Assembly: GCF_032191835.1 (NCBI RefSeq)
Contig: NC_083224.1
Location: 130,324,001 to 130,388,000 of the forward strand
Reading direction: 5' to 3'
Origin: Heteronotia binoei
Lineage: Eukaryota
DNA: 64,000 nucleotides
Within the stretch, counting starts at the first letter, position 1, and the number at the start of each line of letters is the position of its first letter. A program made the position numbers and the translations under genes. Under the pieces are notes generated by a model, which saw only the letters and a program-made list of their open reading frames with translations, was not told the DNA's origin and searched no databases. This document shows, one piece after another, positions 11,096 through 64,000 of the stretch.

Positions 11096-11340
11096 GTCCA
11101 TTTATCTTTTGGTATTCGCAGGCCACAAGGGCACTGGGTTCAGCTGTTGGGCAATAGTTGGTAGAGTTGTGCAGGGTTCTGCTGCTTAGCACAAGTGCAT
11201 TCAATGCAATGTTTCTGTGCTGTGGTCCTTGCATAAAGCATCCTCCCAGGTTTGTAATTCACAGAGATTCTCAGATTTGAACTAAGGTCCTGTGTGTTGG
11301 CACTTGTTCTGATGGTCACATAGCACGGTTATGCTCCTTG

Positions 11341-11899
11341 TGTCACGTTCTCAGGGTGCAGGCAGGCAGGAGTCCAAAGCCAGTCCAAGGTCAAAGTCCA
11401 GGAAGTCAAGCAGGGGCCAAGTCACCAAAGTAAAATCACAAACCAGAATCAGAAGTCAGTGTCCAAAAGCCAAAGGGTAAGGGTACTAAGGAATTCAAGC
11501 AGGTCAGGATCTGGAATCAGGAAGGAGTGTGGATGCAAGCCAGGGAATCGACTTGCTGCTGCCACAAGGTTACCAGGTCCTGGTGGGAATTATATGGGAG
11601 CCTCAATCAGCCTGCTCCCTGGGTGGCAGCGACTCTGCTAGAACTCAGGGCTGAGAGATCTGAAGCATCAGCGTGCCTCATGTCTTCGCTCTGAAAATTC
11701 TTTCCAGAGCCTGCTTCAAATTCTTGAGATGGGAGGGGGAGACCTTGGAGGAGATTGATTGTCAACAGCCAGCACTGGTGCCTGGAATGTGGGGAAAGTG
11801 ATTGATGGGCCAGCTGCTGGTTGTTCAGCTTAGGAGCTGGCTGACAACTCTTCAAGGTCTGTTAACCCTTCCAGCTCCCACTCATCAGGGCTCATGACA
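11341..11899 (-). mobile_element. Ty3/Gypsy-type solo LTR (559 bp)
   Basis: TGTCA...TGACA termini; 5-bp TSD CCTTG at 11336-11340 and 11900-11904; TATA-like CATATAA on the minus strand; U5 end similar to the LTR at 40701-41283. Confidence 0.9.
11638..11895 (-). pseudogene. Decayed LTR U3 ORF, 86 codons, ending RSLSPEF-stop
   Basis: ATG at LTR position 5; one continuous frame with three internal stops (one TAA, two TGA compatible with CpG decay of CGA); homologous to the open frame at 40705-40923. Confidence 0.6.
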
Positions 11900-12565
11900 C
11901 CTTGCAAACAAGCATCCTCACCACAGTTGACTTTCACTGCAGAGATTATCTAGAAGAATCTGACTGCTGCCTGTGTTTGTAAGTTTTTCCCATCATAGGA
12001 GACAATGGGGAAGTGGGGGCAACCACTTTGGGGTCCCATAGAATTGGAACCTCTGGTCCTATATATTTTTTTGGAACTTGGTGGTTCCTTGGGGGACATG
12101 TTCCTGCAGCCTTGGTGCCTCTTCCTCAAACCACTTCTTCACCAGTGTCAATTTTCCCACAATGGGAAATGACACCTTTCCCTCCTGTCATAGGAAATCA
12201 TGGGGAATAGAAGAGGGTGCCCCTAGAACTGGATCCCACATCCAATCTTTTTTAAACTTGGGGGTTCTATGGTGGAGAGGCCCCTGCAGCTGCCCTGCAA
12301 CTTTGGGGCCTCTCCCTCAAACCCCTTCCTCCCCAGAGTCCATACATTATTCCAGGTGTGGCCAAACTGTGGCTCTTTCACACATATTGTGTGGCTCTTC
12401 TGAAGCCCCCATTGCCCTCTTGGCCAGCTTGGAGAAAGCATTTGTCTCTTTAAATCACTTGTCCAAGCCAAGTCAGCTGGCAGCTTGGGAAATGCGTTTA
12501 AAGTTAAAGTTGTTTTCTTTCTACCTCTCCCTCCTCATCTATTTGCTTCAGCGTGCTGGGGTGGG

Positions 12566-13190
12566 GGTGAAGGGAGCGATCCTGCCCATTCTCTCCCAGC
12601 CAGGCATTCTTTCCCCGTGCTTGGGTGCTTGGCTGGGAGAGAAGCAGCGAGATCGCTCCCTCCACCCCCACCCCAGCACGCTGAAGGTAGCGATCCTGCC
12701 CCTTCTCTCCCAGCCAGGCATTCTTTCCCCGTGCTTGGGTGCTTGGCTGGGAGAGAAGCAGCGAGATCGCTCCCTCCACCCCTACCCCAGCACTCTGAAG
12801 GGAGCGATCCTGCCCCTTCTCTCCCAGCCAGGCATTCTTTCCCCGTGCTTGGGTGCTTGGCTGGGAGAGAAGCAGCGAGATCGTTCCCTCCAGCCCCACC
12901 CCAGCACGCTGAAAGGAGCGATCCTGCCCCTTCTCTCCCAGCCAGGCATTCTTTCCCCGTGCTTGGGTGCTTGGCTGGGAGAGAAGCAGCGAGATCGCTC
13001 CCTCCACCCCCCCCCCCACCCCAGCACGCTGAAGGGAGCGATCCTGCCTCTTCTCTCCCAGCCAGGCACGCAAGCACGGGGAAAGCATGCCTGGCTGGGA
13101 GAGAAGTGGCGAGATCGCTCCCTGCGAAGTGCTGGGTTGGCGATGGGGGCAGAGGGAGCGATCTCGCCGCTTCTCTCCCGGGGGCTGCAG
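12566..13190. repeat. Tandem array of about 5.5 x 114-bp GC-rich palindromic units
   Basis: Units start near 12569, 12683, 12797, 12911 and 13031. Each unit has AGGGAGCGATC...GATCGCTCCCT and CTTCTCTCCCAGCCA...TGGCTGGGAGAGAAG arms. The 38-aa periodicity in the ORF track equals 114 bp. Confidence 0.95.
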
Positions 13191-34857: not shown

Positions 34858-37800
34858 ACAGTACAATGCAGACCAACAACACCCCCAGAAAAATTGTAAA
34901 AATCTAGAGGGACCTAAAAAGGTAAAACATATGATATTAAAAATACAGATAAAAAATTAAAAGATTATACAGCTCCAGTAAAATATTAACTAAAAAACAC
35001 TGATTAACATTTGTTTCAGTTTCAATAGCATTTATGTTAGTATACAGAGTACTCAGGGGTTAAGGTAAAGTAAAATATAAGCTTGGGAATATTCAAAAAT
35101 AATTAAAAAACAGACAGTTTCAAGACCCCTTTGTTACATAATCCTCATGAATTCTCCTAGCTGCCGCCAAGAATTTGGCACAATTAGATGTAAATTGGGG
35201 GTTAGAATCTGATAACAGCATATTTCTGATTTTATAATCAGAGAACCCCAGGCATCCCTCAAACAAAGAATAGATGTACCTGGCGCGTATGCCTAGGTAA
35301 AGGCCACACCCAAGCAACACATGGTCAATCGTTTCCACTTTATCTGCACCACAAGGGCAGACCCACTCAGCCATAGGCACCTTTTTAAAGCGGCCCTCAA
35401 TGACTGCTGAAGGAAAGATATTGCAACGGGCCATGGAAAAGGCCCTTCTGTGGGATGGTAGTGTTAGATTTGAGAGATAGGAGGCTGGAGCTAGCACATA
35501 TCTCCTTTGGTGGGGGGAGCTAAATAATCTGAGACCTTGGCAATATCATTCTGTCTCTCAATGTCTTGTAATCTCTGTTTGACTATGTCCCTGGCTTGGT
35601 CCAGGGCCATTATCTGGAGAGATTCAGGTGAAAAGCCAACCATAGACAAATTCTGATGAATGGCTCTAACCCAAGAGGAACAATATCTATCCTTTAAAAT
35701 TAGTGATGTGATATTTGTGGGGCAATGGCTGAGATTGAGCCAAGTGGTGATTGAAAGTAGGCTCACCCTAGCCTCTGTCCTTAGCAAGCCAGTTTCCAAG
35801 CATAGTACTGCATTGGAAACACAGGTTGGAAAATGGAAAATGGCTCTCAAGAATTTGGACTGAATTTTCTCAAGAGGGTCGAAGCTTGATAAGGTTGGAC
35901 CCAACATGGTTCCATAAATGAGTTGAGGTATTGTTTTGGCCAAGTACAGTTTTAATGCAACAGGTATAAAATGCCCCCCTTTAGTAAGAAAAAACCTACT
36001 GATGACCTGGGTCGATTTACAACCAGAGTTGGCAGCATATTCATGATGAGCCTTCTTTGACCATGAGGACTGAATCATAACCCCCAGATATTTGTAAATT
36101 ACTACCTGTTGTAAACTATGGCCATTTATACTCCATCTCCTTAGCCTGGGTTTTGGGCTGAAAGCCATTACTTTTGTTTTCTGATAATTAATCTCTAGAA
36201 GGTTATGGTCACAATAATGACCGAATTGTACTAATGCCCTTCTAAGTCCTACTGGAGTTCTAGATAGCAAGACTGTATCATCTGCATAGAGTAGGGCTAC
36301 CATTTGCCTATTGGCCAAGGAGGGGGGATGAGTATCGACTAGATGGAGGTTGCTGATCATATCATTAATGAAGATGGCAAAAAGGGAAGGGGCCAGGACG
36401 CAGCCTTGCTTGACTCCTTTCTGTGATGGGATAGGGTCAGTAAGGAGACCTTGCTTATTACATCTGACCCTGATAGACATGTTGGTATATAATGCCTGGA
36501 TCAGGAATAAAAGTCTTCTGTCAATTGAGGTGGCATTTAACTTCTCCCATAATTTCCCTCTGGTAATGGAGTCAAAAGCAGATTTTAGGTCGATAAAGGC
36601 TGCATAAAGAGAGACCGTTCTACTGGTTGCATATTTGTCAATCAAATGGGATAAGATCAAAATATGTCCCAACATGGATCATCCTTCCCTAAACCCAGCC
36701 TGCTCATCTACCAAATACATTTCCTGAATCAGCCAGCACTGCAATTTCTCTAAGAGACGATTAGCGTATAATTTGCCCAAAATACTCAGGAGGCTAATTG
36801 GCCTATAATTGGCTGGATCATCCTTCTGCCCGGACTTGAAAAAAGGGATGATGATAGCCTCTCTCCAGGCCTCAGGAATATCCCCTGTTGAATCAATATA
36901 TGTGAACAATGGGGCCAAGAGGGAGGCCCACCAGTCAATATTATCTTTCAATAGATCTGGGGGTATGAAATTCCTGGCCTGGAGCTTTGCCTCTCTTGAG
37001 TTTGCTGATCAGAGATCTGACTTCTCCAACCGTCACCAGAGGCCAAGGTGGCAGGTCTGAAAGGGCCTCATGAATCAGGGGAACTGCAGAATGGTGGGGA
37101 TCAGAATACAGCTCTTAAAAATGATTCCCAATTCTTGGGGGTGACAAAAGAGTCAATGGGGGAGATATCTTTGTAGGAGTGACTCGAGATCAGTTTCCAA
37201 AACCCTGTTGAGATCTTCTCCTTGGATGACTGTATAATGCTATTTCACAGCACTTTCATGGCTTCACGCTTCTTTGTGGCAATCAGTTCTTTATAAAACT
37301 TCTTAGAACATGAGAGATGGTGTTGTGTACACAGAGTATCAAGGCCCACAGAATTCTTATATGCATGATACGCTATTTTTAGATCTCTTCTTGCTTGCTT
37401 GCATTCTTTATCAAACCAGGGCTTGGAGACGTTTTTGAATCTACAATGCTGAACAGAAGCATCTTGGACCAATAATGGTTTTATGAGTTGGAGGAGATGA
37501 TCGAAGGGGATCAAAGGGTTCAAGCCACGGGGAGTATCCAAAATTAGTTTTCTTTTGGAGCAAGCATCCTCCTTCTCCAAGACTCCCCTCACCATTTGTG
37601 CCAACTTGTCAGACCACTTGGCACAACATCTCATTTGTTGAGCTGGAACCAGATGTTGGCCCATCGTAATACTGTGAAAAGTCGCAGGAGCTAAAGGAGC
37701 TAGAGTAAGTAATAATGGGAGGTGATCACTTTCTAATTCGGGTAGAATTTGTAGATGAAGAACCTTCGAAAGTAATCTTGGGCTGGCAAGGAAATAATCA

Positions 37801-38699
37801 ATGGTGCTGCATCTAGTACTGGCTAGAAAAGTGATTTCCCCAGGATAATCACCTACTGTGGAGCCATTCAGTTTGGAGAGGTCAAACCTTCTAGCCATCC
37901 TTGCTAAGCAAGCCCCTGCAAAGTTTACCCTTGGGTCTTTTGAAAGACGTAGAAGGAGAGTGGAATGGCGACTTGCCTCATTGATGAAGGTAGGAAATCC
38001 ATACTTTCCAATAAGGATCTCATCATGAGGGCCTAGTCAAGCGTTAAAGTCCCCTCCCATTAGAATCATATCAGCTGGGGTATCATTCAGAAGATCCTCT
38101 AAATGGGATTCAAAATCATTCCAGATTGCTAGAGTGTCTGATTGTCTTTGATGAGGAAGTAGGTAGACATTGATTAGTAAAATAGTCTTTGTATTAAAAT
38201 GAAGGAGAACTGCCAATGTCCATGGGTTTACATTATTTAGTTGTACGCATTTACCCTTAATTGTTGAGGAAATTAGAATTTCCAATCCCCCTTTGAGCCT
38301 TCCAGCGCCTTCATCAGGGATAGCCTTATTAGTGAAACCATAGTAGCCATCCAATAGAAGCTCCCCATCTGTCCAGGTCTCTTGGAGAAGTAAAATATCA
38401 TATGTCTTAAAAAGTGGGGAGTGATCTAGGCTTCTTAGGCGGGCCCAGCCTGCTATGTTCCAGGAGATTACTTTAAGATGGTTTGGCTTCCCTGTTTTAC
38501 GCTGGATTGGCCATCATACTTTTGAAGCTTCTGCCAGGGAAACAGGGTCAGTTATTCCTTCAACACCAGTAGGTTCATCTAAGATCATGTACAAAATTGG
38601 ATTGTCTGGAGGGATAATCAGATTGGTATTATTGCCCCTTTTCTTAATTGTTATAATTGGTTCCAATGGAATGCTACTCAATGGCTCTGGCACTAGAGT
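34858..38699 (-). mobile_element. RTEX-like non-LTR retrotransposon (APE-RT-CCHC), 3.84 kb, frameshifted
   Basis: APE (WNIAGW, LLQETW, GGDFNA, IDY, SDH); RT (YRPISLL, FIDLKSAFD, GVKQGCVLAP, YADD); C-terminal CPCG..VET..HVLL.C; 11-bp TSD TTCTGGAGTAC at 34847-34857 and 38700-38710. Clade assignment is by motif memory only. Confidence 0.85.
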
Positions 38700-39712: not shown

Positions 39713-40700
39713 CTTACTTGGTGACTTGTTGATTTTTTTAGTATCTTAAAAGTGGCCTTTGATACAGTTTCTAGAGCCAGGTTGTGGGGAAAGTTACAGG
39801 CTTCCACAGTTGATAGATGTCTGTTGTTTCTTATTTGGGCTATTCACGAGCAAACAGAGTGAGGTGCAGCCAATTAGGACACCTGACAGACCCCGTTCAA
39901 ACATTCAGGGGAGTCAGTCAGGGTTGCCTTTTAGCACGCATACTGTTTATTTTCTATATAAATAACCTAGTAAGTTTTATGAAAGACCCCAGATTACACC
40001 CCCCCACACACACAAACTAGCAGATCAACACATCCAAGTGCTATTGTATGCAGATGATGCCATAATTCTCTCCAGAATGCCTATAGGACTGAAATGGGTG
40101 CTGAAAAAGTTCTCCTTTTATTGTGAAATTGAACATTTTAAAATTAATTATCAGATAACTAGGATTATGGCCTTCAGGAAAAACACAAGAGCTAGGTACT
40201 GGGAGATTCAAGGACACCAGCTGGAACAAGTATCTAGTTTCAAATGCCTGGGAGTAGTGGTACAGGCTTCTGGTTCCAACACAATCCATAACAGCAGCGC
40301 CACTGATACAGGAGAGAAATCAATAAATAGTATCCTGACATTTTATTGGACTCAGGGGGTTACAGTGTTCCAGCTGCACTTCACCTGTTTGAAGCTAAGG
40401 TACTGACCCAGCTAACTTATGGAACATTTCTGGGATCTTCAGTTTCTTCCCTGTCCCTATTTGAGAGAGTCCAATCCAAATTTCTTAGAACATTAATCCA
40501 GTACCCAAGTGTGTATCAAACTCCTGGGTCCACTTGGAAACAGAAATGACTTGAGTAGAGGCTAGAATCTGTGTTCTTTCTATATATAAATGGGTCACTG
40601 GTAACATAAATCCTAAAGGGTTGTTCCCTCTTATCTTGCACGACGAATTTCAATGCAATTGGCTCCAAGCAGTCCAAAAAGCCATTAGGAAGTTGGGGTT

Positions 40701-41283
40701 TGTCCTGGGTGCTGGGGGCCCTGCAGAAGAAGCCGAGCCTGCAGAAGAAACTGTGCCCCTGCCACCTGCACCAGTGCCCCTGCCTCCTGCTGGAGAAGAT
40801 CCAAGCCCCCCTGCCTCGCCCTCTTGGGTGGCTCGTGTGCGTGACTGCCTTCGTCAGGACCTCAGGGATCGGAGGAGGACGGCACGCTCACGAGCAAGAC
40901 GCTCCCTGAGCCCTGAGTTTTGAAAGGATTCTGGCCCTTATAGGAGTGAGGGTGCTTGAGTCTCAGCAGGATCCTGGCTGCCCTCTGAGTCAGCAATTAG
41001 CCCAAATGGGCAACAGACAGCAGAGGGCTATATAGCTGTGGGCTTTGAGAGAAGGCTTTGTGGAAGCAACTAGTCACTTACCTGATGTTCTAGTATCCAC
41101 TTTGGCTTCTGGACCCCCTGACTCTGGCATTGACTTCTGGACCCCCTGACTTCAGCTTCTGAACCTCTGACCTACGATACCTGGACTGTGATTTGGTTTT
41201 GGTGCTTTGGACCCTCCTTGCTACCCAGCTACATACCTTGGACTGCCCCTGGACTTCGCCTGGCCTGGCCCCAGCCCGTGACA
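40701..41283 (+). mobile_element. Ty3/Gypsy-type solo LTR (583 bp)
   Basis: TGTC...TGACA termini; 5-bp TSD GGGTT at 40696-40700 and 41284-41288; TATA-like GGCTATATAG near 41030; CTGGAC/CTGAC-rich U5. Confidence 0.92.
40705..40923 (+). CDS. Open LTR U3 frame, 72 aa, Pro-rich then Arg-rich, ending RSLSPEF-stop (begins CTG, no ATG)
   Basis: Stop-free from LTR position 5. Same register and C-terminus as the decayed ORF at 11638-11895. Expression unproven. Confidence 0.45.
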   Translation: MGAGGPAEEAEPAEETVPLPPAPVPLPPAGEDPSPPASPSWVARVRDCLRQDLRDRRRTARSRARRSLSPEF

Positions 41284-45154: not shown

Positions 45155-47845
45155 TTAGTTACCACATGGTGACTCAAATGCTAACTGAAAAAGAAATGTT
45201 TTGCAAGCCCTGCGGAATTGGTTCAGGTCCCGCAGGGCTCGCACCATCTCTGGGAGATCATTCCACCAGCGAGGGGCTATCACCGAGAAGGCCTGCTCCC
45301 TAGTGGCCTTCAACCTAACTTCTCTTGGCCCAGGGATTGTTAATAAGTTCTGAGAACCAGACCTCAGTGCTCTCCGGGGTACATATGGGGAGAGGCGGTC
45401 CTTTAGGTAGGCAGGTCCTCGGCCATATAGGGCTTTAAAGGTAATAACCAGCACCTTATAGCGAACACGGTAGACAACCGGCAGCCAGTGCAGATTGCAC
45501 AGCCCAGGCCGTGCAGGCTCCCACCGTGGTAGTCCCTCCAGCAGCCTGGCCGCCGCGTTCTGGACTACCTGGAGTCTCCGTGTTCGGTACAAGGGCAGCC
45601 CCATGTAGAGGGCATTGTAGTAGTCTAACCTCGAAGTGACCGTTGCGTGGATCACAGTTGCCAGGTCGGCGCGTTCCAGGAAGGGGGCCAACTGCCTCGC
45701 CCTCTTGAGGTAGAAGAAGGCGGATCTAGCAGTGGCAGCTACTTGGGCCTCCATTGATAGGGAGGACTCCAGTAGCACCCCCAGGCTCTTGACTTTGCGC
45801 ACCGGTACCAGTGGCACACCGTCAAAGGCCGGTAAAGTAGTCTCCCCTCCCGGTCCGCCACGGCCCACGCAAAGGACCTCAGTCTTCGCCGGATTCAACT
45901 TCAGCCCGCTCAGCCTGAGCCAGTCAGCCACGGCTTGTAGTGCCCGGTCCAAATTTGCTGGGACATCACCAGCCCGGCCGTCCATCAATAGATAGAGCTG
46001 GGTGTCATCTGCATATTGATGGCAACCCAGCCCATACCTCCGTGCAATCTGGGCAAGGGGGCGCATAAAGATGTTAAACAGCATCGGGGAGAGGACTGCC
46101 CCCTGAGGCACCCCGCAATGGAGTGGATACCTCTGAGACAGTTCCCCCCCGATTGCCACCCTTTGTCCCCGACCCTCAAGAAAGGAGGAGAGCCACTGTA
46201 AGGCTAGCCCCCGAATTCCTGCGTCGGCGAGGCGGCGGGTCAGCAGCCGGTGGTCAACCATATCGAACGCCGCCGATAGGTCTAACAACAGCAGTACTGC
46301 CGAGCCGCCTCGATCCAGTTGCCGTCGGAGGTCATCCATGAGGGCGACCAGGACTGTTTCTGTCCCATGGCCCGGGCGAAAGCCGGACTGGCATGGGTCT
46401 AGGACGGAAGCGTCCTCCAGAAATTCCTGTAACTGCACCGCCACGGCCCTCTCGATAATTTTGCCTAAAAAGGGCAAGTTTGAGACCGGCCGGTAATGTG
46501 CCAATTCGGCCGGGTCTGATGACGTTTTTTTCAGGAGAGGGCGGACCAGTGCCTCTTTCAGAGGTGTTGGAAAAACACCTTCTGAAAGGGATCGATTTAT
46601 AATATCCCGTATAGGATATCTTAGTTCCTCCTGGCAGGCCTTAATTAGCCAGGAGGGGCAAGGGTCCAGATCGCAAGTCGTGGAACGTGCAGTGGCAAGA
46701 ATTCTGTCGACTTCCTCCAAGCTGAGCGGGTCGAAGCAATCCAGAGTTGAATCAGAAGACACGCATTGGGCTTCGAGTCCACTTACTGCCTCCAAATTGG
46801 CGGGGCAGTCCTGGCGGAGCGATTGGACCTTATCCGCAAAGAATTTCGCGAAGGCCTCGCAGCCAATTTCCAATTCCTTAGCTTTAGAATTGCCCTGAGG
46901 CAATGTAGTCAGATTCCGAATTATTCTAAATAATTGGGCTGGGCGCGAATTTGCGGATGCAATCCTAGCCGCAAAGTATGTTTTCTTTGCGGCCTTGATT
47001 GCCATCTCATAGAACTTCATAAGCTTCCTATAAGATGTTCTAGTCGCCTCGTCACGAGTGCGTCGCCATTGCCTCTCTAGCCGTCTAAGGCCTTGTTTCA
47101 GCTGGCGTAATTCCGGGGTATACCACGGAGCCAGCTTAATCCGAGGTCGCAGAGGGCGCCGAGGTGCGATCTCCTCGATGGCCCTAGAGAGCCGGCTATT
47201 CCAGGTCTCAATCAGGCCATCAAGGGAGCCGCCAGAGGGCCAGGAGTCCCGCAGAGCCATCTGGAACCGTTCCGGGTCCATTTGACTCCGTGGGCGAGCC
47301 ATAATCGGCTCCTCGCCTAAACAGGTTCGGGGGGGCATATTCACACGGGCCTTGAGGGCGAAGTGATCCGACCATGGCACAACCTCTGTAGTTATATCGC
47401 TCACTACAATCCCGGCCGCAAAGATCAGGTCTAACATGTGTCCGGCCTGGTGGGTGGGGGTCGCAACGAATTGAGAGAGTCCCAGTGTCGCCATGGAAGA
47501 CACTAGGTCCGTCGCCTGACTGGAGGACGGGTCATCGGCATGGACGTTGAAGTCACCCAGGATTATCAGCCTTGGGTGCTCCAGCGCCCAGCCTGTCGCC
47601 GCCTCAAGCAGGGACGGTAAGGCGTTGGCCGGTGCGTTAGGCGTACGGTACACCAGCCAAATCGCCAACCCCTCTTCATCCCCCCACGCCAGCCCGGCAC
47701 ATTCAATGCCCTCAATCTTTGGGGCCGGGAGCGCCCTAAAGGAGTAAGCCTCCCGTGCAAATAATGCCACTCCTCCCCCCCGCCCGCTAGTCCGCGATTG
47801 GTGGAAGACCGAGTAACCTGGGGGAGCTGTTTGCGAGAGGGCCAC
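45155..47845 (-). CDS. L2 ORF2 (APE endonuclease, partial, plus reverse transcriptase), 896 codons without a stop
   Basis: GRGGGVAL, GDFN, LDLIF, SDH (APE); YRPVSNLPFLGK, LDLSAAFD, GVPQG, YADD (RT). Starts at GTG at the truncation point and lacks the APE N-terminus. Confidence 0.93.
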   Translation of the reverse strand: MALSQTAPPGYSVFHQSRTSGRGGGVALFAREAYSFRALPAPKIEGIECAGLAWGDEEGLAIWLVYRTPNAPANALPSLLEAATGWALEHPRLIILGDFNVHADDPSSSQATDLVSSMATLGLSQFVATPTHQAGHMLDLIFAAGIVVSDITTEVVPWSDHFALKARVNMPPRTCLGEEPIMARPRSQMDPERFQMALRDSWPSGGSLDGLIETWNSRLSRAIEEIAPRRPLRPRIKLAPWYTPELRQLKQGLRRLERQWRRTRDEATRTSYRKLMKFYEMAIKAAKKTYFAARIASANSRPAQLFRIIRNLTTLPQGNSKAKELEIGCEAFAKFFADKVQSLRQDCPANLEAVSGLEAQCVSSDSTLDCFDPLSLEEVDRILATARSTTCDLDPCPSWLIKACQEELRYPIRDIINRSLSEGVFPTPLKEALVRPLLKKTSSDPAELAHYRPVSNLPFLGKIIERAVAVQLQEFLEDASVLDPCQSGFRPGHGTETVLVALMDDLRRQLDRGGSAVLLLLDLSAAFDMVDHRLLTRRLADAGIRGLALQWLSSFLEGRGQRVAIGGELSQRYPLHCGVPQGAVLSPMLFNIFMRPLAQIARRYGLGCHQYADDTQLYLLMDGRAGDVPANLDRALQAVADWLRLSGLKLNPAKTEVLCVGRGGPGGETTLPAFDGVPLVPVRKVKSLGVLLESSLSMEAQVAATARSAFFYLKRARQLAPFLERADLATVIHATVTSRLDYYNALYMGLPLYRTRRLQVVQNAAARLLEGLPRWEPARPGLCNLHWLPVVYRVRYKVLVITFKALYGRGPAYLKDRLSPYVPRRALRSGSQNLLTIPGPREVRLKATREQAFSVIAPRWWNDLPEMVRALRDLNQFRRACKTFLFQLAFESPCGN

Positions 47846-48245
47846 TGTAGGGAAAGTGTTCCAAACCTTTAATCATTCTAGTTGCCCTTTTCTGGACTTT
47901 TTCCAATGCTATAATATCCTTTTTGAGGTGTGGTGACCAGAATTGTACACAGTATTCCAAACGAGACCGCACCATCAATTTATACAGGGGCATTATGATA
48001 CTGGCTGATTTATTTTCAATTGTCTTTTGGGAGCAGAGGAGAGCCAGGCTGCTTTCACATTACCATTCTAAACCAGTTGTTAACTTTTGTTGGCCTGATT
48101 CTGAGTAAAGTGATACAGGGATGGGGATTTCATACAAGAAACTGTATCCTGTTAATGAGCTGTCTTTGAAGTGCTATGGCCATTTCAAAATGTGTTTCCT
48201 CCACCCTTTGTTGCCATGTGATCTTCCTTCCCCTTTCCCCCCAAC

Positions 48246-48631
48246 GGTCAAGTGCCTTGTCATTTTTGTTAAGAATAAACTTTGCTATCTCATCACTGCT
48301 GCTTTGCTGTGCTGCTGCTCCACTTATCTCTTTGCAAGTTATCCAAATTCTTTCCAGCTGGCTAAGGGATACCAAGGCTGCGCTGATAGCCAAGATGCAC
48401 CTGGGAGAAGACATGAGATGTCTTGGGAAGAGGGATAGATGCTTCCTGCATTTTGCTTCCCACTTGCTTTTGAAATAGTAATGGATTAAGGTAGCCTATA
48501 TAAGGGGGCAAGTTGCCTGCCTTGCCAGTCTTGACAAAAGCCATCACGCCTGTAACCTGTTGTCAAGAGTCAATAAACAGCCATTTATAAAGTGGACCAT
48601 TTGTGCTCTTTGAACTATGGGAGTCTTGACA
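48246..48631 (+). repeat. 5' LTR of the Gypsy element
   Basis: Colinear with 52967-53359; ends CTTGACA; first base is G instead of T. Confidence 0.92.
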
Positions 48632-49421
48632 TATTGTGAAGACTCCTTTATCCTTGGAATGCCTTACCACCACTGACAATGTTGGAGGATGAGAAGGTCA
48701 TATCTAAGAACATACAAACTGACCCAATCGAACCAGAAGTGCCCAAGCCAGAAGGGCCAAAGCTCATGCCTAGGTTTGTTATGACTCAGAGGAGCAAGCG
48801 AGGTTTGAGAGGTTTCATGGAAGGGGAGGAGAGGAAAACAATGGCCAGGCTCAGTCGCCCTCATTCCTCGGGATTGCAGGGAGAATATTGGGCTTGGGGG
48901 TCTGACGATAAAGCAGAGGGTTCTATGAGAGGGGCTTCATTTGGTCACCCTGGTGAGGGCCCGCCCAACTAGCTGCAAGAGAGTCTATTGGCATACAGTC
49001 AGCACTTGAGAAACAAGATGCTCACCATGAATGATTACGTACTTTATGCGAGAGGTGAGGACAGTCGCCTAAGGGACACTCAGCTAAGGGAACTAGTTGT
49101 TCAGGTCACTGGGGCGCCACCAACACAGCCACCAGCTGCCACCCCTCCTGCTCCAGATGGGGGGTACCTCTGCCACCACCACCAGATGGGGGAGGCCAAC
49201 CGGTCCAGCCCACTCAGCCACTCCAACCAGTTGCCCCCCAGAACCACACTTTACCCCGAGGGGGTCCAAAGGTGTGAGGCATGGTTCAATAGGCACCCCA
49301 CCAATTTGAGATATTTCCTGGTCCAAATCAGGGGCCACCTTCAAATATGGGTTAACAATTTCCCTACCGAGGCCAAAGTCATCTACATTGGGGGGATGCC
49401 TTCAGAGAGCTGCCACGGATT

Positions 49422-50771
49422 TGTAAGCCAAAAGACCCTCAAAAGAGGTTGGGGAATTGACAGGTGGGCACCTTTGGCTTAAAAAGGATCTAGAATCTAT
49501 GTATACAGGATTCCACTTCCAGAAATCATTGCTTAAATTTACCAAGGACACTAATTAAATAAAAACAATTAAAAATTTATTGTAGAAAAATACAGAACAC
49601 ACATACAAGGTAATGAATACATATAACACACATATAGTCCTAATAAAAATAGAGATAAATGCATAGAGGTAACATAAGGATGAACAAACAGGGTGATAAT
49701 TACTGATCGTAGTCTTCAAGGAAGGCTCCAATGGTGACAAAAAAGAACTAGGGGGAAGGGACCCTCAACTGATCAGGAATCGGGGATGTATCTAAACAGC
49801 AGGAATGGAGTACTGCTAGATGCACACCTGTGGGGAGCTGGGTCACAGGTTATAAGGACTACCTTGAGCCCTTAGGAGATGGGAGGTACAGGGGTGGATG
49901 ACAGGTGGTCAGCTGGTACATGACCTCAGAAAAAGGGGAGGCTCCGCAATGACCATACGGGCTGGACTTATGTGGTAGCCAATAGCCAGTTTATTGGGGG
50001 CACGTGATTGGATGCCCATACCTGGCCAATGAGCAGACTTGGCCCTGGTTACCTGATTGGACTTCCAGGTAACAATGGGCCAAGCGGGAGGCTCCAGGAT
50101 GGACCATTAAGGGAAAGAATGGGTGAAATTATTGGGGTGGAGGTGATTAAAGCTATCAAAACTTATCTAAAAGGCGACAATAGATGGCCAAATTGCTACC
50201 TAAGGTAGCACCCAATCTATACAAAGGCACTTGGCTCTAGGTGAAGATGTTCTTCCTCCTCTTCATTCCTCTACTGGCCCCAGCCTTTGTTTTGGGTTCC
50301 ATTGGACAAAGGCTTAGGCAGTCTGACAGGATTCATGCCTAAGATAAGCTTGATGGCCTTATGCATAGGTGACATATGTTGAGTACGTGAGCCTCCCACT
50401 TCATTGTAATGGAGTCTGGCACTGCAGGAAGATAGCTGCTGGTGATGTTAGCCTTCCCATATGGATTCTATGGTTAAGGCTGGAAACCGCTTGCCTGGAC
50501 AGTTCCTGGCGGTGCACCTTCTTCCGCTGCAACGGCCGAGATGGTGATCACATGGAGCGACCGGAAACCCATCTGTTCTCCTGGTTAGCACTTTTCTGGA
50601 GACACGGAGTGCTGCTGCAATGTTGTAGCTATTTGTACTCACATAAGTCCCTACATTCTGGTAGACAAAATCCATGTTCTCCTGGCAGATGTGTGTGAGT
50701 TGAATCTCCAGGCACCCTGGCAACCAAACGGGTGACTACAATGTTCTGAAATTAGGGGTCTTTTTCTCACA
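49422..50771 (-). mobile_element. 1350-bp TGT...ACA insert in gag, most likely a long solo LTR in antisense orientation
   Basis: 4-bp TSD GATT at 49418-49421 and 50772-50775; about 17-bp imperfect terminal inverted repeats; gag rejoins across it (ATD-WYVTL); CCAAT, TATA-like and AATAAA motifs in order on the minus strand. Confidence 0.8.
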
Positions 50772-52966
50772 GATTGGTACGTTACCCTATACAAGTCACA
50801 CTCACCTGCCTTAGATTTGGCCAGAGGCCTTAAGTGAACAATTCAAAGACCCCTTGCAGGAGACCAATGCTATCTCTGCTCTCCACGACTTAAAGCAAGG
50901 TGCAAAATTGGTCTGTGACTATCTGGTGGAGTTCCAATTCTTGAATAGCAAAGTGCACCATTGGGACTCTGGGGCCCAGGTAAAATAGTACAAGAGGGGG
51001 CTCAACTCAACACTATTTGAGGAAGCATTGGCCATGAGGAAACCCAGACTCTAGTTGGGTGGATTCAACTAGCTTGGGAGATAGAGGACCAGCAGAAGGT
51101 GGTAGCACTCCACCAAAAGCAACAGGGAGCCCCTAGTCCCCAAGAGACTAAAGACAGAGGGGGAGAGAAGGGGGCTCCTCACAAGCCCACCCTCACCCCC
51201 AGTGAGAAAGAGCAGCACGCTGAGAATCACTTATGCTTCTAGTGCAGGAAGGGGAGAACCATGTCGCCAATGAATGTCCCAGCACCCCACGGGGGGGCAG
51301 AGGTCCTGGGGGTAAAGAAAGGGGACCCAAAGAAAAAGCCTCCTCAGCTGCAAAGGGAGGCACAGCCTTACTCCACTATGTGGAGCTGAAAGCCGAGAAT
51401 TCAGGGGAGTAGAGCAGAAAGACTCGCTGGCAGGAAAAGCCAATGACCTGCTGTGAAAAGTACACACCAGCAGGTCGCCGCAATTGCTGTGCCACTATGG
51501 GTGAGAACTTCCGGGACTTTTTATTTTATCCCATCACCCTAGTAAACCCAGAGACCAAAAGGTTTATGAGTGTGCAAGCCTTATTAGATTCAGGAAGTTC
51601 CGGGGGGGGGCTAGGGATGGACCCTGCTGAAATACAAGTGGTGGTGAACTGGGCAGCCCCCCAGACCTGCAAACAACTCCAAAGCTTCTTCGATTTTGCA
51701 AATTTCTATAGAAACTGCATCAATAACTTTGCTTCCCCCTCACCAACCTTTTAAAAACTAAGGGGAAAGGTGCAGAGACTCAAAAGCCTGAGGTCTGCCT
51801 CAAATGGCCCCCTAGCTGCCAGGTGGCCTTCAAAGAACTCAAGTGACTGTTCACTTCTGAGCCGATCCTTATCCATCCTGATGAAAACAAAAAGTTTGTG
51901 GTGCAATGTGACGTAAGTGATGTAGTCCAAGCAGCCATCCTGCTCCAAGAGGGGCAGGATGAGAAGCTGCACCTTTGCACTTATCTCAACTCCCCACCAC
52001 AAAGAAACTAGCCCAGTTTTTCTTACAACACATTGTTAGACTCCACTCAGTCCCGGCCAAGGTGATATCTGACAGTGAAGCTCAGTTCGTTGCCAATTTC
52101 TGGATTCAAGTGTGTAAATTAACAAGCATTGAACAGGGACTAAGCTCTGCCTATCACCCCCAAACAGACGGGCAGACGGAGCACACGAATGGGGTGCTCA
52201 AGTAGTTTCTCCGATGTTATGTGTCATTCCAACAGGACAACTGGGTTTCATTACTGCCGTTTGCTGAATATCCATATAATAACAGTGTTCATAGCTCTAC
52301 CAACGCTAGTCCGTTCCTGATTGTTAATGGGTATGAAAGGAAACCATTCCCAGAACTGCCGGGAGGCCCCAAGAATGCCAACTCCCCTGACTTTACCGAT
52401 TGGTGGCAGTCCATAGCCTAAGGCTGAACAATGATCCAAGCTGAACTCAAGAGAGCCAAAGGGACTTACAAAAATACCACGATAAACAAAATTCTAAACT
52501 TTGGGAGCTTAAAATGGGCGATACAGTTTACATCCCCATCAGAACTTGCCTAATTCAAAGCCTTCAAAAAAGTCGGGACTAAAGTACTTGGGGCCATTCC
52601 CCATTAAAGGGATTATTAATAATGTTAATATTGAACTTGAACTGCCTAAAGCACTAAAACATGTCCACCCTTGTTTTCATGCCATCCTCCTCAAGCATGA
52701 CCCTGGACCTTCATCTTGGCACCCACAACTGACTGCTCCAGCTCCAACTCTAGTGTGGGGTCAGATTACTTTGAATTCCAAAGCATTCTGAATTCCAAAT
52801 GGAAAAGGGGTGAACTTTACTATCTCATCAAATTGACTAACTTCCCCATTAGCCAAGCAGAATGGGTGAAAGCTTCAGACACAAACAGCCCAAGGCTAAC
52901 CAAAGACTTCCACAGCTGCTTCCCAAATAAACCAGGGGGAGGGTGAGGGCTTGGGTGGGGACAGTA

Positions 52967-53359
52967 TGTCAAGTACCTTGCCATTTTTGTGAAGAATAAA
53001 CCTCACTGTCTCATCGCTGCTGCTTTGCTCTGCTGCTGCTCTGCTTATCTCTTTGTAACAATTATCCAAATTCTTTCCATCTGGCCTGGGAAATTGCTAC
53101 CAAGGCTGCACCAATAGCCAAAATGCACCTGGGAGGAGATGTGAGATGTCTTGGGGGGTGGGATAGATGCTTCCTGCTTTTTGCTTCCCACTTGCTTTTG
53201 AAATAGTAATGTATTAAAGTAACCTATATAAGGGAGCAAGTTGTCCACCTTGCCAGTCTTTGCAAAAGCCGTCATGCCTGTAACCTGTTGTCAAGAGTCA
53301 ATAAACAATCATTTATAAAGTGAACTATTTGTGCTCTTTGAACTATGGGGGTCTTGACA
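52967..53359 (+). repeat. 3' LTR of the Gypsy element (393 bp)
   Basis: TGTCAAG...CTTGACA, with TATATAA and AATAAA inside. Confidence 0.93.
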
Positions 53360-57520: not shown

Positions 57521-58201
57521 TGAAGCAGGGTTGAAATAAAAATATATTAAATAAGGTAAATTGAAAGCCATCAATTAGGCACAAGGGCAAGAAAACAAAA
57601 GGTCAAAGAGATTTTAAAAGTGCTTGCTAGATGCCTCTGTGAAATAATCCTTGTAGATTGCGAAAGGGAGGAAAGGAGAGTTAGCAGTGTGTCCAACTTG
57701 TAGAAGCATAAGGCAGCAAAAGAGGAAGTTAATCCTTCACCCATTGCCTTTGCCGCAGCTGCCTAAAGGAGGAACTAGAAACTGGCTGGAATAAGCACTA
57801 AAATAAGCATTGAGCAAACGTACCTTGGAAAAAGTCTCAGGAGCAAGTCAAAGGTGCAAATGTGTTTTTGATGAAGGATATTGCTGCAAGAGTGTTAGCA
57901 ACATCAATGCCATGTATGGAAAGACTCTCCCTGTCTCCTCCTTGTTCCTTTAGTAATATGACGCTTGTAATGATGTATGGGATATGGGGTGGGCCTTTCC
58001 TGTAATTGTGCGATTGTTTACTGAAAATGATTGTCTGTGACTATAAAACTGTAGACCTTCCTGAAACTGGGGCTCCCAGATTTGTTTAGACATGAGTCTG
58101 GTCTGGGGTCCGTGTACACGTTAAATAAACGGCTGTTTCTTCCTGATTTCGCCTGTGGCCTCGTTTCTGCCTGACCACCAACGGCTAAGGTTGCTGCTAC
58201 A
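57521..58201 (+). repeat. ERV 5' LTR (681 bp)
   Basis: TG...CA termini; first 320 bp repeated at 63681-64000; TATAAAA near 58043; TAAATAAA near 58122. Confidence 0.93.
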
Positions 58202-58207
58202 TTTTTT

Positions 58208-58225
58208 TGGTGCATTGGGCCGGTC
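58208..58225 (+). promoter_or_regulatory. Primer-binding site, tRNA-Gly-like
   Basis: TGGTGCATTGGGCCGG versus TGGTGCATTGGCCGGGAA, the complement of the tRNA-Gly(GCC) 3' end; immediately after the LTR. Confidence 0.75.
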
Positions 58226-58782
58226 AAAAAGGGGGGGGATTTGGGCCCCACCCTTTGGCCCCCAGACCAGCCTGGGGCTATGGTCAGGCCAGCCTTGGGT
58301 CCGGGAAGGAGCTCCCAGTTGATTTCAGTTGCTGGGCCTGTCTGCCTCTGCCTGGCCTGGCCTGGCTGGATGGGTCGCCAAACAGACCACAGAAAGGCAT
58401 TCAGGAACTGGCCCTAGTAAGAAGACCTGCGCAGGTGAGTATGAGAATGGGGTTTAGTAGATAGAACCTCTCCATAAGAGACTGTTTGGCCTCGACCCGT
58501 CTCGGAGGGAAGGAGGGCTTGATCACCCCTCGGCTGCACACTAGTAAAGCTCGCTGAAAGAAAGGGGAAGTAGTTCTCCCCGCCAGCACCCTTGAAGCTG
58601 TGCTAGCCTAGTACTGGAACTGGGAAGGGGCTTGTGGTGAGATTGTGTATGAATGAGACATGACATTTGCTGAAGGCAGCAGCTGCTATGAAGCGACATG
58701 TGTTTCCTTGTGTTGAGACTGCTCTCTCACCCACCCCCTTTTCCCTTTTGTGTCTAAGAATGTCTCGTCTGTCTGGTTAACC

Positions 58783-60115
58783 ATGGGAGGATCACAGTCT
58801 AGGGGACGCCCTTAGACTGCATGACTGCAATTCTGACATAGGTTTTAGTGGAGACTATGGTATAGATAGGGCTCCTGAAGCGTTTGTAGCATTTTATGAA
58901 CTAGAGGGTTTTAAACAGAGGCTAGATGGCCATCTGACAGCGATGGAGATCCTGTGAATTTGGGGGGAGGTATTTGTGTGTTCCTGCATTGTGCAGAGGG
59001 TTGGATGACCCTGGAGGTCCCTTCCAACTCTATGATTCTATGATTCTAGAATGACCTACATTTGGTGTTGTTCAGTCATCTAAGGGTTCATGTGACAAAG
59101 GTTATGAGTTACCCTGACCACCTAGACCAGTCCTTGTATATTGTTTCATAGCAGTTTGGATTTAAACCACCTACATGGTTGCAAAATACACTACTCTTGG
59201 GCAGGCATCTCAGTCTCAGGCCAAGACAATTTACACCACAGCACCTCCAGGAACCAGATATTAGGACATAGGGCAGTGTCCCAGTCGCCCCTTGCAGGGA
59301 GCCGGTCCTTCAAGCCCAACGCAAAGCTCCCAGCCTTTCCTCTTTGCCACTTGGACTTCACCCTCGCCCCCTTCATCGGTTAAGACCAAAGAACTCCGGA
59401 TCTATGGGCTTCCCCAAAGAGAAGGTCTCCAGAAGCAAGCCCCCCGCCTCTGGCCAGCTTGCCACCTCAAAAGAAGTCCCAGTCAGCCATGTGATGCCCC
59501 TCCAGCAGATCCAGGCTTCCCAATTCCTGGGCTATGATGGGACAGAAGGAGGAAGGGAACAACATGCCATGATGGGCTACATTTCCCTGGAACTGACCTC
59601 ATATGGAATGCCAACCGGGAGGCTCCCATCTGCCTATTAAGCCAATACCGGCAGGCACAAAGGAGGCGGCCACAAAACCCATTAATATGTGGAGGAAGCT
59701 GTGGGCTGAAGTGTTTCCCTCAATTACATTTTCCTACCCCAGTTGCTGCAGGAGATAAGAGAGAATACCCCGGCAGAGGTGCAGGTCCAGATGGAGAAGC
59801 AGAGAGTCATCGACCTGGAGGTCCCAATGTATGAGGTGTCCGAGTTCCTGGGCATCTACGAAAAGGCCAAGCAGCTGGCAGAGGGAAAGCTGCCTGGCAG
59901 CAAGCAGAAGACCGAGCAGATCCTCAAAGGGAAACTGGCTGCCATCAATAAAGCCTCGTGCCTGAAGGCTGAAGCTGAAATTGCACAAGAGAGAGATGGC
60001 CAAGGAAACGGTAGAGGCATAGAAGAACTAGCTGGCTCAGTGCCAGGACGTGGTGTACACCAACAGGAATGTCCCCAAGGAAAAGAAAGCCCTAATTGCC
60101 AAACCCTTGTGTGAA
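58783..60115 (+). pseudogene. gag: ERV gag remnant
   Basis: MGGSQS..PLDCM...GFSGDYG...ELE.PTFGV matrix motif with stops and frameshifts; helical C-terminal part and degenerate knuckle (ORF 59743-60114). Confidence 0.8.
58908..59050 (+). mobile_element. Short CR1 3' end inserted in ERV gag
   Basis: TTAAACAGAGGCTAGATGGCCATCTG...CCCTTCCAACTCTATGATTCTATGATT tail; CTAGA repeated at both junctions. Confidence 0.85.
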
Positions 60116-60129
60116 GTTACAAAGGGGGG

Positions 60130-62330
60130 TGAGCGCACACCCTTTAAAGTGAGACACTAAGTAACATCAGACCTTAAAGAAGTTAAAAGGCTGTTGTTAA
60201 AAGCTCCGGCCCTAGGGCTACCTGATGTCAGCAAGACTGCCACCCTCCTCATTCCTGAAAGATATGGGACTGCAGTTGGAGTCTGTACCCAGATGTTGTA
60301 TTCATGGCATCAGCCAGTACCCTACTTGTCTGAACGGCTGGATGTAATAGCCAAGATGCCTCAGAGCCATTGCCCTAGAGTAGATCCAAGCTGCCCAGAT
60401 TTGACTGCTGTGCCCCTGCCTAACTCAGAAGCAGAATATTATACTGATGGCAGCAGTTCTGTACCAGATGAAGTGCGCCAGGCAGAATATGCTGTGGTCA
60501 CCCTGCAAAGGCAGAGCCAATTGACCTGACCAGAACACTTGAATTAGCAGCTGAAGCCAGAGCACGCATTTGCACCAATTCAACATATATGTTTTGACCC
60601 TCTATGCCTATGAAGCCCTATCTAATGAGAAGGAATTAATTCACACAGCAGAAGAGATTATCACATATGGCCCCAAGATCCTGAGACTTTTGGACTTTTG
60701 GTACAGCACATCAAAGCCATTCAGTAGCAAAAGGAAGAACCCAGGAAGAAGAAGGAGGGAAAGCCCAGGGAGCATCTACCGATCGTGATCAAGGACAGCT
60801 ATCTGATAACACACTTATTTGTCCCCAAAGCTATAGCTTGACCGTAGTGCAGCAAACTTATAAGGGAACTCATTATAGGAGACTCTGCCATAGCAAGGCT
60901 ACTAGATATACAAATGTTGTGGACTGTGTGCTACAGCTGCAACCAGATGTTTTATTTTTTTTTATTTATCTGAGATTTATATCCCGCCCTTCCCACTAGG
61001 TGGCTCAGGGCGGCTTACAACATGTAAAACTAACATAAAATATAAAATTAAGCATTTAATTAACATTTCATAATTTATAGTTAAAAATCTAAACAATTAT
61101 TATATACATAAATATATGTATATAATATACATAATGGTTTAAATGGTTTAATGGTTTCAGATGTATTTAAATGGTTTATGAATATGTGTGTTTGATGTGT
61201 TGGTATGTTTGTGGAAGAGCACCTCATTTCGTTGCTCTCTTTTTGTTGAGAACAATGACAATAAATTCATCTATCTATCTATCTAAACATTAAAATCATA
61301 CAGCGGTCTTAAAGCTACACTCGATTCAAATTCGATTTCAAATTCAGTATGTCGGTGTTCAGTGTTTGATGCCGGTTAGCTGTGGGCCAGCCGAAAGAGG
61401 GCTGTCTTACAGGCCCTGCGGAATTGGGTAAGGTCCCGCAGGGCCCTTACCTCTTCCGGCAGCTGGTTCCACCAAGATGGGGCCATTACGCAGAAGGCCC
61501 TGTCCCTTGTAGCTTTCAAACGGGCTTCCTTTGGCCCGGGGACAACCAGGAGGTTTTGAGTTCCCGATCTCAGTGCTCACTGGGGAACGTGTGGGAAGAG
61601 ACGGTCCCTCAGGTAGGCAGGTCCTAGGCCATATAGGGCTTTAAAGGTAATAACCAGCACCTTGTACCGGATGTGTGTCCTGTGCCAGAAATAATCCAAG
61701 ACAGAGCCTAAATTAGCCCCAGGGGTGCAGCATGTAGAAACTACCCAATTTAAGTTTATGATAATCAATTTCACTGAGCTGCCCAGATCACTAAGTACTC
61801 ACTAAGTCTTTGTGTGCTTACTCCAATTGGAATAAGGCCTTTCCCATCAGAACCAAGAAGGCCTCTAAGATATTGGTCCCAGAGGAAGGTGAGAGAGCGC
61901 ACTGGTCCACTGGAAGAATTAAGTAGCTAAAATGTGTCAGAGGACTAGCTTTAAGTAATCTAACACATTGCCCATTGCCTTGTTCAAACTGAGATGCTTA
62001 CCCAGAAAAGGGCTGGAAATTATGTTCTTTAAAAGATTATTCATGGAAGGCCCCTCCTAGTATAACAGGAAGTAAGGGAGACCCAGCCCAGGTAGGGACT
62101 TGTGTGGTTTCAAGAGATTTATTCGTTAGGAAGAGATATGAATGATGTATCTTAATATGTATTAGAAACTCTCCTTCTCCAGGTGCACCATCCCATGCAT
62201 AAATTCCAACCTGGACTCATCTTAAATGAGCTTCCCCAGGTACAGTCTGTTCCTGGGCCTAAAACTTACCCGACCACCGAGCTCTGGACCCCACCTACCG
62301 GCAACGATGGGATTCACAAGCAACTAGACG
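60130..62330 (+). pseudogene. pol: ERV pol remnant (tether/RNase H and integrase; protease and RT core absent)
   Basis: APALGLPD, PVPYLSERLD, PDLTAVPLP...YYTDGSS; integrase C.LCARNNP, FTELPR, LPIALFKLR. No YxDD segment found. Confidence 0.85.
60951..61671 (-). mobile_element. L2 3' fragment inserted in the ERV integrase
   Basis: L2 tail TATATCCCGCCC...GGCTCAGGGCGGCTTACA; RYKVLVITFKALYGLGPAYLRDRL; GATGT repeated at both junctions. Confidence 0.92.
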
Positions 62331-62449
62331 ACCCCTAGCTGCCGTCACGCTAGCTGACGTGCTTTACCCTCAGGAGAAGAAGCCATCAATTGGAGCAACT
62401 GACTGGTCAAGCTGAAGACCTATAACAAGCCCTAGTCAATGTTTTGTAG

Positions 62450-63652
62450 GTTTTATTCTTTACTTGTGTTTAGGCAGGTACTGGAGCTAGATTCTGCGAT
62501 TTGGCCACACTTAAGTGAAAGTTAAGAGTTTTGGGAAAACAGGATTTTTCTGTAAATATTGCTGTCCCAAATTCGAACCGTTGGAATTGTAGTTAGAGAT
62601 TAAGGAAAAGTATTTTAGCCATCAGGATTTGGAAAGCCCATTGGCTGAGTTAGACCCCCGCGAATCAGAGTGAATGGGAAATGTCATTGTCTTATAAACA
62701 TTTTGCAAAAGATGATGAGGAATGGGATCATGAAACCCAATTCAATATTCTAAGTAGGCCTTGGCTAAATACACCTAGGGCCTCGCCAAACACTTAGAGC
62801 CTCGCCAAACCTTTTGGTTTTAGAAAGTCAGGAACAACTTTGTCCCCATTATTTTGTGCAGGTTTGGGGTTATAGAGCACCTGCCATACCTGTGCTTCTT
62901 TTATATAGCCAAAAGTATCCATGATATAGGTATAAGAAGAAAGTGGAAACTCTGGTGGATTTTAAGGCAAAGGGAAGATTGCCCTGCCCGGATGAGGATA
63001 ATGTGCAGAAAGGCCCCCTCCATGGAATAACTTGTGCTGGAGGTGTAGAATTAACAAATAGATGTCTGCTGTAGGTATTGTTGTGTATGTGGCTGGCTGG
63101 AGGAGCAATCGGTTGTTTGATATTTGCTATACTACTCTGTGTGAAAGACTGTATAAGAGAGAGAGAAGAGGAATCAAGGTTATAAAAAGTTCTCAGAGTT
63201 TATTAGCCAATCCCCTTATATTCCTAAAATAAATAAGCACATCTCTTATGTTCTTATAGCTCAGAGGATGGCACAAGGAGTTTCAGAGGCAGCAAGAGAG
63301 ACCATAGATTCCAGATGAGTCGGGTCAGATTTTGACTGGAGAAAAGACGTTGAGAAGCCTGGTGAAGAGAGATGAGACAGATGACACAGAGTTTAAATCT
63401 GGTAGAAATTTATTCAAGTGGTTAACAAGCTGGCTTTCTAGTTTTAGCTGGCTGCGAGAGGGTTTTGTTGTAATCATGGCTTTAATAGTGTTATGCATCT
63501 TCCTATGTTGCTGCATTCATTGCCTTCCTGCATGTATGGAACATCTTGGATCCTTCAGGGCCTTAAAGGAAGAACCGGTGGCCCAAGACCCTGTGTATGA
63601 GGTGACGCTAGCCAACCGGCTATGGTATATGAAAAGCCAAGCTGTGCAGTAA
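62450..63652 (+). pseudogene. env: ERV env remnant; C-terminal TM portion open (63332-63652)
   Basis: FKWLTSWLSSFSWLREG (Trp-rich membrane-proximal region), FVVIMALIVLCIFLCCCIHC (TM with Cys cluster) and a cytoplasmic tail directly before the PPT. The upstream boundary is approximate. Confidence 0.75.
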
Positions 63653-63668
63653 GTACTTATGTGAGCAT

Positions 63669-63679
63669 GGAAGGGGGGG
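63669..63679 (+). promoter_or_regulatory. Polypurine tract
   Basis: GGAAGGGGGGG immediately before the 3' LTR. Confidence 0.85.
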
Positions 63680-63680
63680 T

Positions 63681-64000
63681 TGAAGCAGGGCTGAAATAAA
63701 AAGATATTAAATAAGGTAAATTGAAAGCCATCAATTAGGCACAAGAGCAAGAAAACAAAATGTCAAAGAGATTTTAAAAGTGCTTGCTAGATGCCTCTAT
63801 GAAATATTCCTTCTAGATTGTGAAAGGGAAGAAAGGGGAGTTAGGGGAGTTAGCAGTGTGTCCAACTTGTAGAAGCATAAGGCAGCAAAAGAGGAAGTTA
63901 ATCCTTCACCCATTGCCTTTGCTGCAGCTGCCTAAAAGAGGAACTAGAAACTGGCTGGAATAAGCACTAAAATAAGCATTGAGCAAATGTACCTTGGAAA
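63681..64000 (+). repeat. ERV 3' LTR (partial)
   Basis: Matches 57521-57831 with about a dozen substitutions and one 10-nt duplication (GGGGAGTTAG). Confidence 0.95.

Follow-up and report, generated by a model that had tools for sequence, protein, structure and literature searches.

A probable LTR-encoded Pol tail with a putative BRCT-docking end in Tf1/sushi-type elements of the gecko Heteronotia binoei

Two solo LTRs and their reading frames

A 64,000-nucleotide stretch of the Heteronotia binoei genome (NC_083224.1, positions 130,324,001-130,388,000; hereafter the window, to which all window positions refer) carries two solo long terminal repeats (LTRs) of Gypsy elements. They belong to two families, A and B, and each contains a short reading frame ending in the residues RSLSPEF. 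The elements are probably Tf1/sushi (V-clade) Ty3/gypsy chromoviruses, judging by four features: (i) the domain order; (ii) a self-priming primer-binding site (PBS); (iii) the sequence of the LTR end; (iv) the absence of an envelope gene. The 85-codon frame of the family A copy is very probably the C-terminal tail of the element's Pol rather than a separate gene. The balance tips slightly towards the fuller explanation, in which this decayed Pol tail ends in an S-P-x-F motif predicted to dock on tandem BRCT domains.

The family A copy is a solo LTR because the 5-bp target duplication CAAGG is present on both sides (Table 1). The initial annotation had described an 86-codon minus-strand frame opening after TGTC with an ATG, interrupted by three stops and free of frameshifts, and the sequence reads so: the ATG lies at LTR base 5 and opens a frame of 85 codons before the final stop, and codons 22, 60 and 76 are premature stops. 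The putative tail consists of an acidic and proline-rich linker, a basic stretch and the terminal motif; a Pfam search with an open version of it gave no match.

Family A is represented in the genome by 2864 first-look candidates, and the best sisters are 91-93% identical to the window LTR. Among 29 sister LTRs the frame is fully open in 10, carries other or shared stops in 13 and is frameshifted in 6, and the ATG is present in 28, hence neither are the stops fixed in the family nor is the ATG private to the window copy. The stop at codon 22 is private (0/23 unshifted sisters) and does not fall on a CpG-type site. At codons 60 and 76, both CpG-type sites, stops recur, in 4 and 6 sisters respectively, in line with the proposed origin of two of the stops by CpG decay. 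In 20 examined regions, six family A elements with two full LTRs were found (4.3-9.6% divergence within pairs). Stops differ between the 5' and 3' LTRs of such elements, and the decay of the frame therefore arose after insertion, from a frame that was open in active elements, as had been proposed. As it stands, the window copy is a dead solo LTR of an ordinary kind.

Table 1. Positions of the LTR features in the window
Feature	Position	Strand	LTR position
Solo LTR, family A, 559 bp, TGTC...GACA, Tf1/sushi-type Gypsy chromovirus (probable class)	11341..11899	-	
Target-site duplication CAAGG, upstream copy	11900..11904	-	
Target-site duplication CAAGG, downstream copy	11336..11340	-	
Decayed LTR-encoded frame, 85 codons, three stops; putative Pol/integrase C-terminal tail	11638..11895	-	
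Terminal motif RSLSPEF and stop; S-P-x-F-COOH, candidate tandem-BRCT ligand	11638..11661	-	
TATA-like box, downstream of the frame	11590..11595	-	305
Self-primer site (complement of the PBS of sister copies), likely transcription start	11555..11564	-	330-339
Solo LTR, family B, 583 bp, target duplication GGGTT; PBS and junction as in family A	40701..41283	+	
Family B LTR frame, 72 codons, open; Pol end in full-length family B elements	40705..40923	+	

The grouping of the two window LTRs as one family, proposed with the family A copy as the second, is ruled out, as they share only a 109-base match of 72% identity near their 3' ends. The suggestion that the family A copy supplies a start codon missing at 40.7 kb fails with it: the families are separate, and the sisters of the family B copy have their own ATG in 28/29 cases and an open 72-codon frame in 26/29, the window copy having lost its ATG privately. 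The solo LTR of family B sits within sequence of RTE/L2-like long interspersed nuclear elements (LINEs), pieces of which lie at 35491-38513 (-) and 39966-40406. Elsewhere in the genome, three family B elements stand head-to-tail with shared LTRs and a spacing of 4924 bp (C1:26945045-26959840).

The LTR promoter is located downstream of the frame, as the initial annotation had it. In the window copy the TATA-like box and the self-primer site, near LTR position 336, both follow the frame. A self-priming PBS, complementary to the 5' end of the transcript instead of to a tRNA, is described as a mark of Tf1/sushi elements (PMC6317226). A PBS complement of 9-11 bases is found at LTR position 330-339 in 25/30 family A LTRs, and one of 10 bases about 30 bases after the TATA box in 20/20 family B LTRs. 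Since the self-primer site is downstream of the frame, 5' LTRs and solo LTRs cannot express the frame from their own promoter, and the claim that it is readable only from the 3' LTR of the element RNA is borne out.

Continuity of Pol with the 3' LTR

The relation of the frame to Pol was examined in 20 full elements of family B, chosen by hand among the first matches on contig C1. These elements are about 5.5 kb long, and their two LTRs are identical in 13 of the 20. Twelve of them contain a single open frame of 1228-1257 codons running from the protease to RSLSPEF or RSLSPEW in the LTR; in the young elements the Pol frame passes from the integrase through the chromodomain and the polypurine tract (PPT) into the 3' LTR. 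Pfam domains follow the order protease, reverse transcriptase, RNase H, integrase, SH3 and chromodomain (PF00385), the last being located upstream of the PPT. Gag, of about 308 codons, is encoded separately; together with Pol it takes up the 4.3-kb internal region, which leaves no envelope gene. The nearest Pol matches are Tf2-like polyproteins of fish. Family B copies lie dispersed over C1 and further contigs.

The same continuity is visible in larger samples. The junction of Pol and LTR is in frame in 60 among the first 100 of 1069 family B junctions, and the best 150 chromodomain matches (the top three left out of the examination of frame lengths) include 90 in a frame of 1228 codons, 20 in one of 1223 and 10 in one of 1153-1154. 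The remaining eight of the 20 hand-picked elements comprise two that are in frame at the junction and broken upstream, five in which the G-run of the PPT is one G short, and one in which it is one G long. Short-G copies are scattered over the family B tree among in-frame neighbours, so slippage of the G-run recurs, either by reverse transcriptase or in assembly. Where the run is one base short, Pol enters another LTR frame, and in most family B copies this frame too is open, over about 67 codons. RNA reads at the G-run, at low coverage and mostly 90-99% alike, gave no listed length variants.

For the older family A, read-through of Pol into the 3' LTR is highly likely. In copies of both families that are joined to a PPT, the LTR is immediately preceded by a Gypsy integrase end and a chromodomain, and the junction sequence is shared. 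Family A shares the PBS with family B as well, and its Pol pieces are 60-80% identical to those of family B. The reading rests on (i) the shared junction; (ii) the silent divergence of the terminal motif between the families; (iii) a length difference of 9 bases in the tail between sublineages; (iv) the other two frames of family A, which stop at or just inside the junction.

The initial annotation had taken the frame for an 85-residue gene with its own start codon. In this form, a separate protein of 72-85 residues would be made from the LTR ATG by means of a subgenomic, spliced or read-in RNA. Stand-alone accessory genes in LTRs do exist, nef and sag being examples. The ATG of the gecko LTRs, kept in all but one of the 29 sisters of each family, has a G at -3 and in family B also at +4, two acceptor-like sites precede the LTR, and host read-in transcripts are possible at thousands of solo LTRs, loose ends being found at the LTR edge. 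The continuous Pol frame of family B speaks against such a gene, and so does the nature of the ATG. The LTR end motif of sushi elements is given as TGTYANR (PMC3601003), and an ATG at LTR bases 5-7 is therefore one of few possibilities; in both families the ATG may thus be read as part of the integrase recognition end. Among 76 homologues bearing the terminal motif, 56 have a junction and 20 do not, and the residue at the place of the ATG is threonine in 40, arginine in 12, methionine in 3 and serine in 1, so that no start codon is conserved (Met 3/56). Spliced RNA entering the LTR had been suggested as a check. The RNA on a family B element was of low continuous coverage and without splice joints in four data sets at low depth (about 6% of three of them read, 1978 reads aligned), and the reads fall on both strands. 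A separate gene is accordingly regarded as highly improbable, and the Pol tail is retained as the identity of the frame.

The terminal motif and its constraint

Two protein searches, made with the chromodomain and tail, yielded 178 proteins, the named ones almost all from teleost fish. S-x-x-F/Y closes 28 of the 178, where composition would predict about 0.9%. A profile search, biased in that the profile contained the motif, added 143 proteins, 48 with the motif, which gives 76/321 in the combined set. Serine occupies position -4 in 76 of the 89 homologues ending in F or Y. The motif-bearing ends have arginine at -7 in 61 cases, proline at -3 in 67 and glutamate at -2 in 57 (otherwise V, A, K, D, Q, T or G), and the last residue is divided equally between F (38) and Y (38). 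Their post-junction tails are 12-38 residues long. The tetrapeptide RGRP lies between the chromodomain and the PPT in 65/76 of the motif-bearing fish Pol ends; it is presumably AT-hook-like. The gecko families are without RGRP and have a basic stretch in the tail instead.

Related elements in metagenome contigs carry the motif before the stop that follows the chromodomain in 8/62 cases. Three of these tails, all stopping at LTR position 23, are only six residues long (TNSPEF, TSSPEY, TSSPVY); one closes a frame of 1563 codons in a contig whose other end repeats the LTR start. Like these, acidic variants (SDEY, SEEY, SEEF, SQEF) retain nothing but the S-x-x-F/Y pattern, and they make up three of the eight metagenome motif ends. 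Many other metagenome elements stop 13-14 bases before the LTR. Taken over all elements, the motif is located at LTR position ~23, 89, 220 or 260, or follows no detected LTR junction. Tail length, position and DNA thus vary while the terminal S-x-x-F/Y persists.

The divergence between the gecko families points in the same direction. The last eight codons of the two window copies differ at 7 bases, including the stop codon, and at no residue. Over the last seven codons, the proportion of silent sites that differ (pS) between families A and B is 0.81 and that of replacement sites (pN) is 0.06 (21 x 22 pairs). A degenerate codon pattern for the motif and stop has 5653 matches in the genome, compared with 15 for the reversed control. 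The motif codons are constrained at the protein level between the two families. Within family B the tail has a pN/pS of 0.44, against 1.03 and 1.59 in the other frames. The shared length differences in the tail amount to 9 bases in both families, whereas further downstream in family B they do not come in multiples of three. A search of the ESM Atlas with the family B tail gave no usable match.

Several results weigh against the favoured explanation. A non-coding LTR control for family B gave pN/pS values of 0.49-0.95, and the whole tail of family A has no synonymous excess (6 silent and 14 replacing shared sites, although no more than 3 such sites fall in the last 33 codons versus 57 in 283 downstream bases). 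The junction is out of frame in 40/100 family B cases, among them young copies with identical LTRs and a Pol that is otherwise open; in family A, 11 junctions are in frame and 14 and 10 are in the two other frames (35 scored of 43, 8 being without anchor), although here the frame count carries no information, two G-runs and a GT repeat being of variable length. Silent change is low in the tail (pS 0.055 vs 0.13-0.18 in the Pol domains), and U3 function therefore also constrains the DNA. In one sublineage of family B the last residue is W in place of F (3/20 elements, LTRs identical or near-identical). As many as 245/321 homologues are without the motif, many of them stopping just before the LTR, so the motif is dispensable for the group. 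Finally, the homologues are related and do not represent independent samples.

The low silent change, the frequency of out-of-frame copies and the lack of a silent excess within family A would also suit a by-product, in which the conserved bases serve a U3 enhancer or an RNA element and the frame is open as nothing selects for a stop. Such an origin would leave unaccounted for the motif codons, whose differences between families A and B are all silent down to the stop codon, the position of the motif always just before the stop at varied places in the LTR, and the length differences of 9 bases in the tail, set against those downstream in family B. The by-product explanation is thus considered very unlikely, and a translated Pol tail remains preferred.

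The window contains further repeats. A third Gypsy family is represented at 48247-53359 (+) by a decayed element with two LTRs; its Pol stops just before the PPT, with no LTR tail. An LTR pair of 93% identity at 57521-64000, cut by the window end and enclosing a retrovirus-like pol and env-like fragments, is probably an endogenous retrovirus. A LINE ORF2-like open frame of 905 codons, with endonuclease and reverse transcriptase motifs recognized by eye, lies at 45155-47872 (-), with decayed relatives at 29.9-32.9 kb, and units of 114 bp, internally palindromic and with an inverted copy at the end, are repeated in tandem at 12546-13179.

Predicted BRCT docking and comparison with known systems

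The C-terminal S-x-x-F/Y matches the pattern of the phosphorylated ligands of tandem BRCT domains, such as those of BRCA1 and MDC1. The BRCT domains of BRCA1 bind pSPxF, which is C-terminal in Abraxas (PMC4747905), and MDC1, 53BP1, PTIP and MCPH1 recognize H2AX by its last four residues, when phosphorylated, and by its carboxylate (PMC8651625; PMC10386641). The gecko BRCA1, of which an exon is 100% identical to a Heteronotia binoei record, carries a BRCT pair. Its pocket residues look conserved, on what we take to be their correspondence to the human residues.

A mechanism may be proposed in the following order: the Pol tail would be kept on the mature integrase; a proline-directed kinase would phosphorylate the serine of the tail; the phosphorylated S-P-x-F would dock on a BRCT pair of the BRCA1, MDC1, MCPH1 or PTIP type; and the recruited protein would tether the integration complex or speed the repair of the integration gaps. 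That the integrase carries such a mimic, with binding predicted from the terminal pattern, is possible, at a little under an even chance.

The same read-through and conservation would fit equally well a tail with another reader, namely a C-terminal degron or kinase switch of integrase stability, or a partner of the PDZ, TPR, WW or 14-3-3 type, with the basic stretch aiding nuclear import or DNA binding. Residues outside the four BRCT positions are also kept (R at -7 and S, E or D at -6), which is in favour of such a reader, as are the upstream RGRP of the homologues, AT-hook-like as we presume, and the basic stretch of the gecko tails. The arginine, however, is absent from the shortest tails, and the combination of S at -4, F or Y as the last residue, a free -2 and P, E, D or Q at -3 is better fitted by the two-anchor mode of BRCT domains (PMC4747905; PMC8651625) than by the PDZ and 14-3-3 rules. 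Another reader is therefore considered unlikely, though less so than a by-product or a separate gene, and BRCT docking is followed below.

Few tests have addressed the choice and completion of integration sites by vertebrate LTR retrotransposons. Fish and reptile elements keep one four-residue motif on tails of 6-85 residues, which points to one class of host partner, and if the docking is true, a mobile element would be copying a core DNA-damage signal. In its widest form the proposal is more tentative: in a vertebrate Gypsy lineage from fish to geckos, the integrase would end in a mimic of the gamma-H2AX/Abraxas phospho-tail, often encoded by the 3' LTR, that recruits BRCA1- or MDC1-type proteins, with slippage of the PPT G-run switching the tail on or off in each copy. 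Independently of the docking, caution is advised with open reading frames in solo LTRs of sushi-type elements, which are probably Pol ends and not genes.

In the literature covered, the terminal motif was not found described for vertebrate Gypsy elements, and the only precedents found for a Pol entering the LTR were those of plant CRM elements; subscription papers (e.g. Butler et al. 2001), Repbase and supplements lie outside this search and may contain a mention of the overlap. For the ERVK integrase, a BRCT motif in an internal position has been predicted (PMC8303831).

The gecko end resembles the C-terminal pSPTF of Abraxas and the motifs of CtIP, BACH1/FANCJ and gamma-H2AX in the S-(P)-x-F/Y pattern, and in its free C-terminus it is like Abraxas and H2AX. 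In contrast to those proteins, for which phosphorylation and binding were shown, the gecko motif is known from its sequence pattern alone. A further likeness is offered by Ty5, in which a short phosphorylated motif of the integrase binds a host chromatin protein (PMC9673352), the phosphorylation of the gecko tail being predicted. Ty5 differs in that it is a Copia element, its partner is Sir4 and its motif is not encoded by the LTR.

The gecko elements share with the described Tf1/sushi elements Gag, the order protease-reverse transcriptase-RNase H-integrase-chromodomain, the lack of an envelope gene, the self-priming PBS, the TGTYANR end and a length of about 5.5 kb (PMC6317226; PMC3601003). 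They differ from these elements, as far as both papers describe them, in a Pol that covers 72 codons (family B) and probably 85 (family A) of the 3' LTR and closes with a conserved motif. Extension of Pol through the PPT into the 3' LTR is described for CRM group A of plants and for the beet elements Beetle7 and Bingo, where the end is a putative C-terminal targeting part of the integrase (PMC3059260; PMC3605345). Family B is like the plant CRM elements in this extension. However, in CRM the CR motif, encoded by the 3' LTR, replaces the chromodomain, whereas in the gecko elements the chromodomain is kept upstream and a terminal motif of 4-7 residues is conserved.
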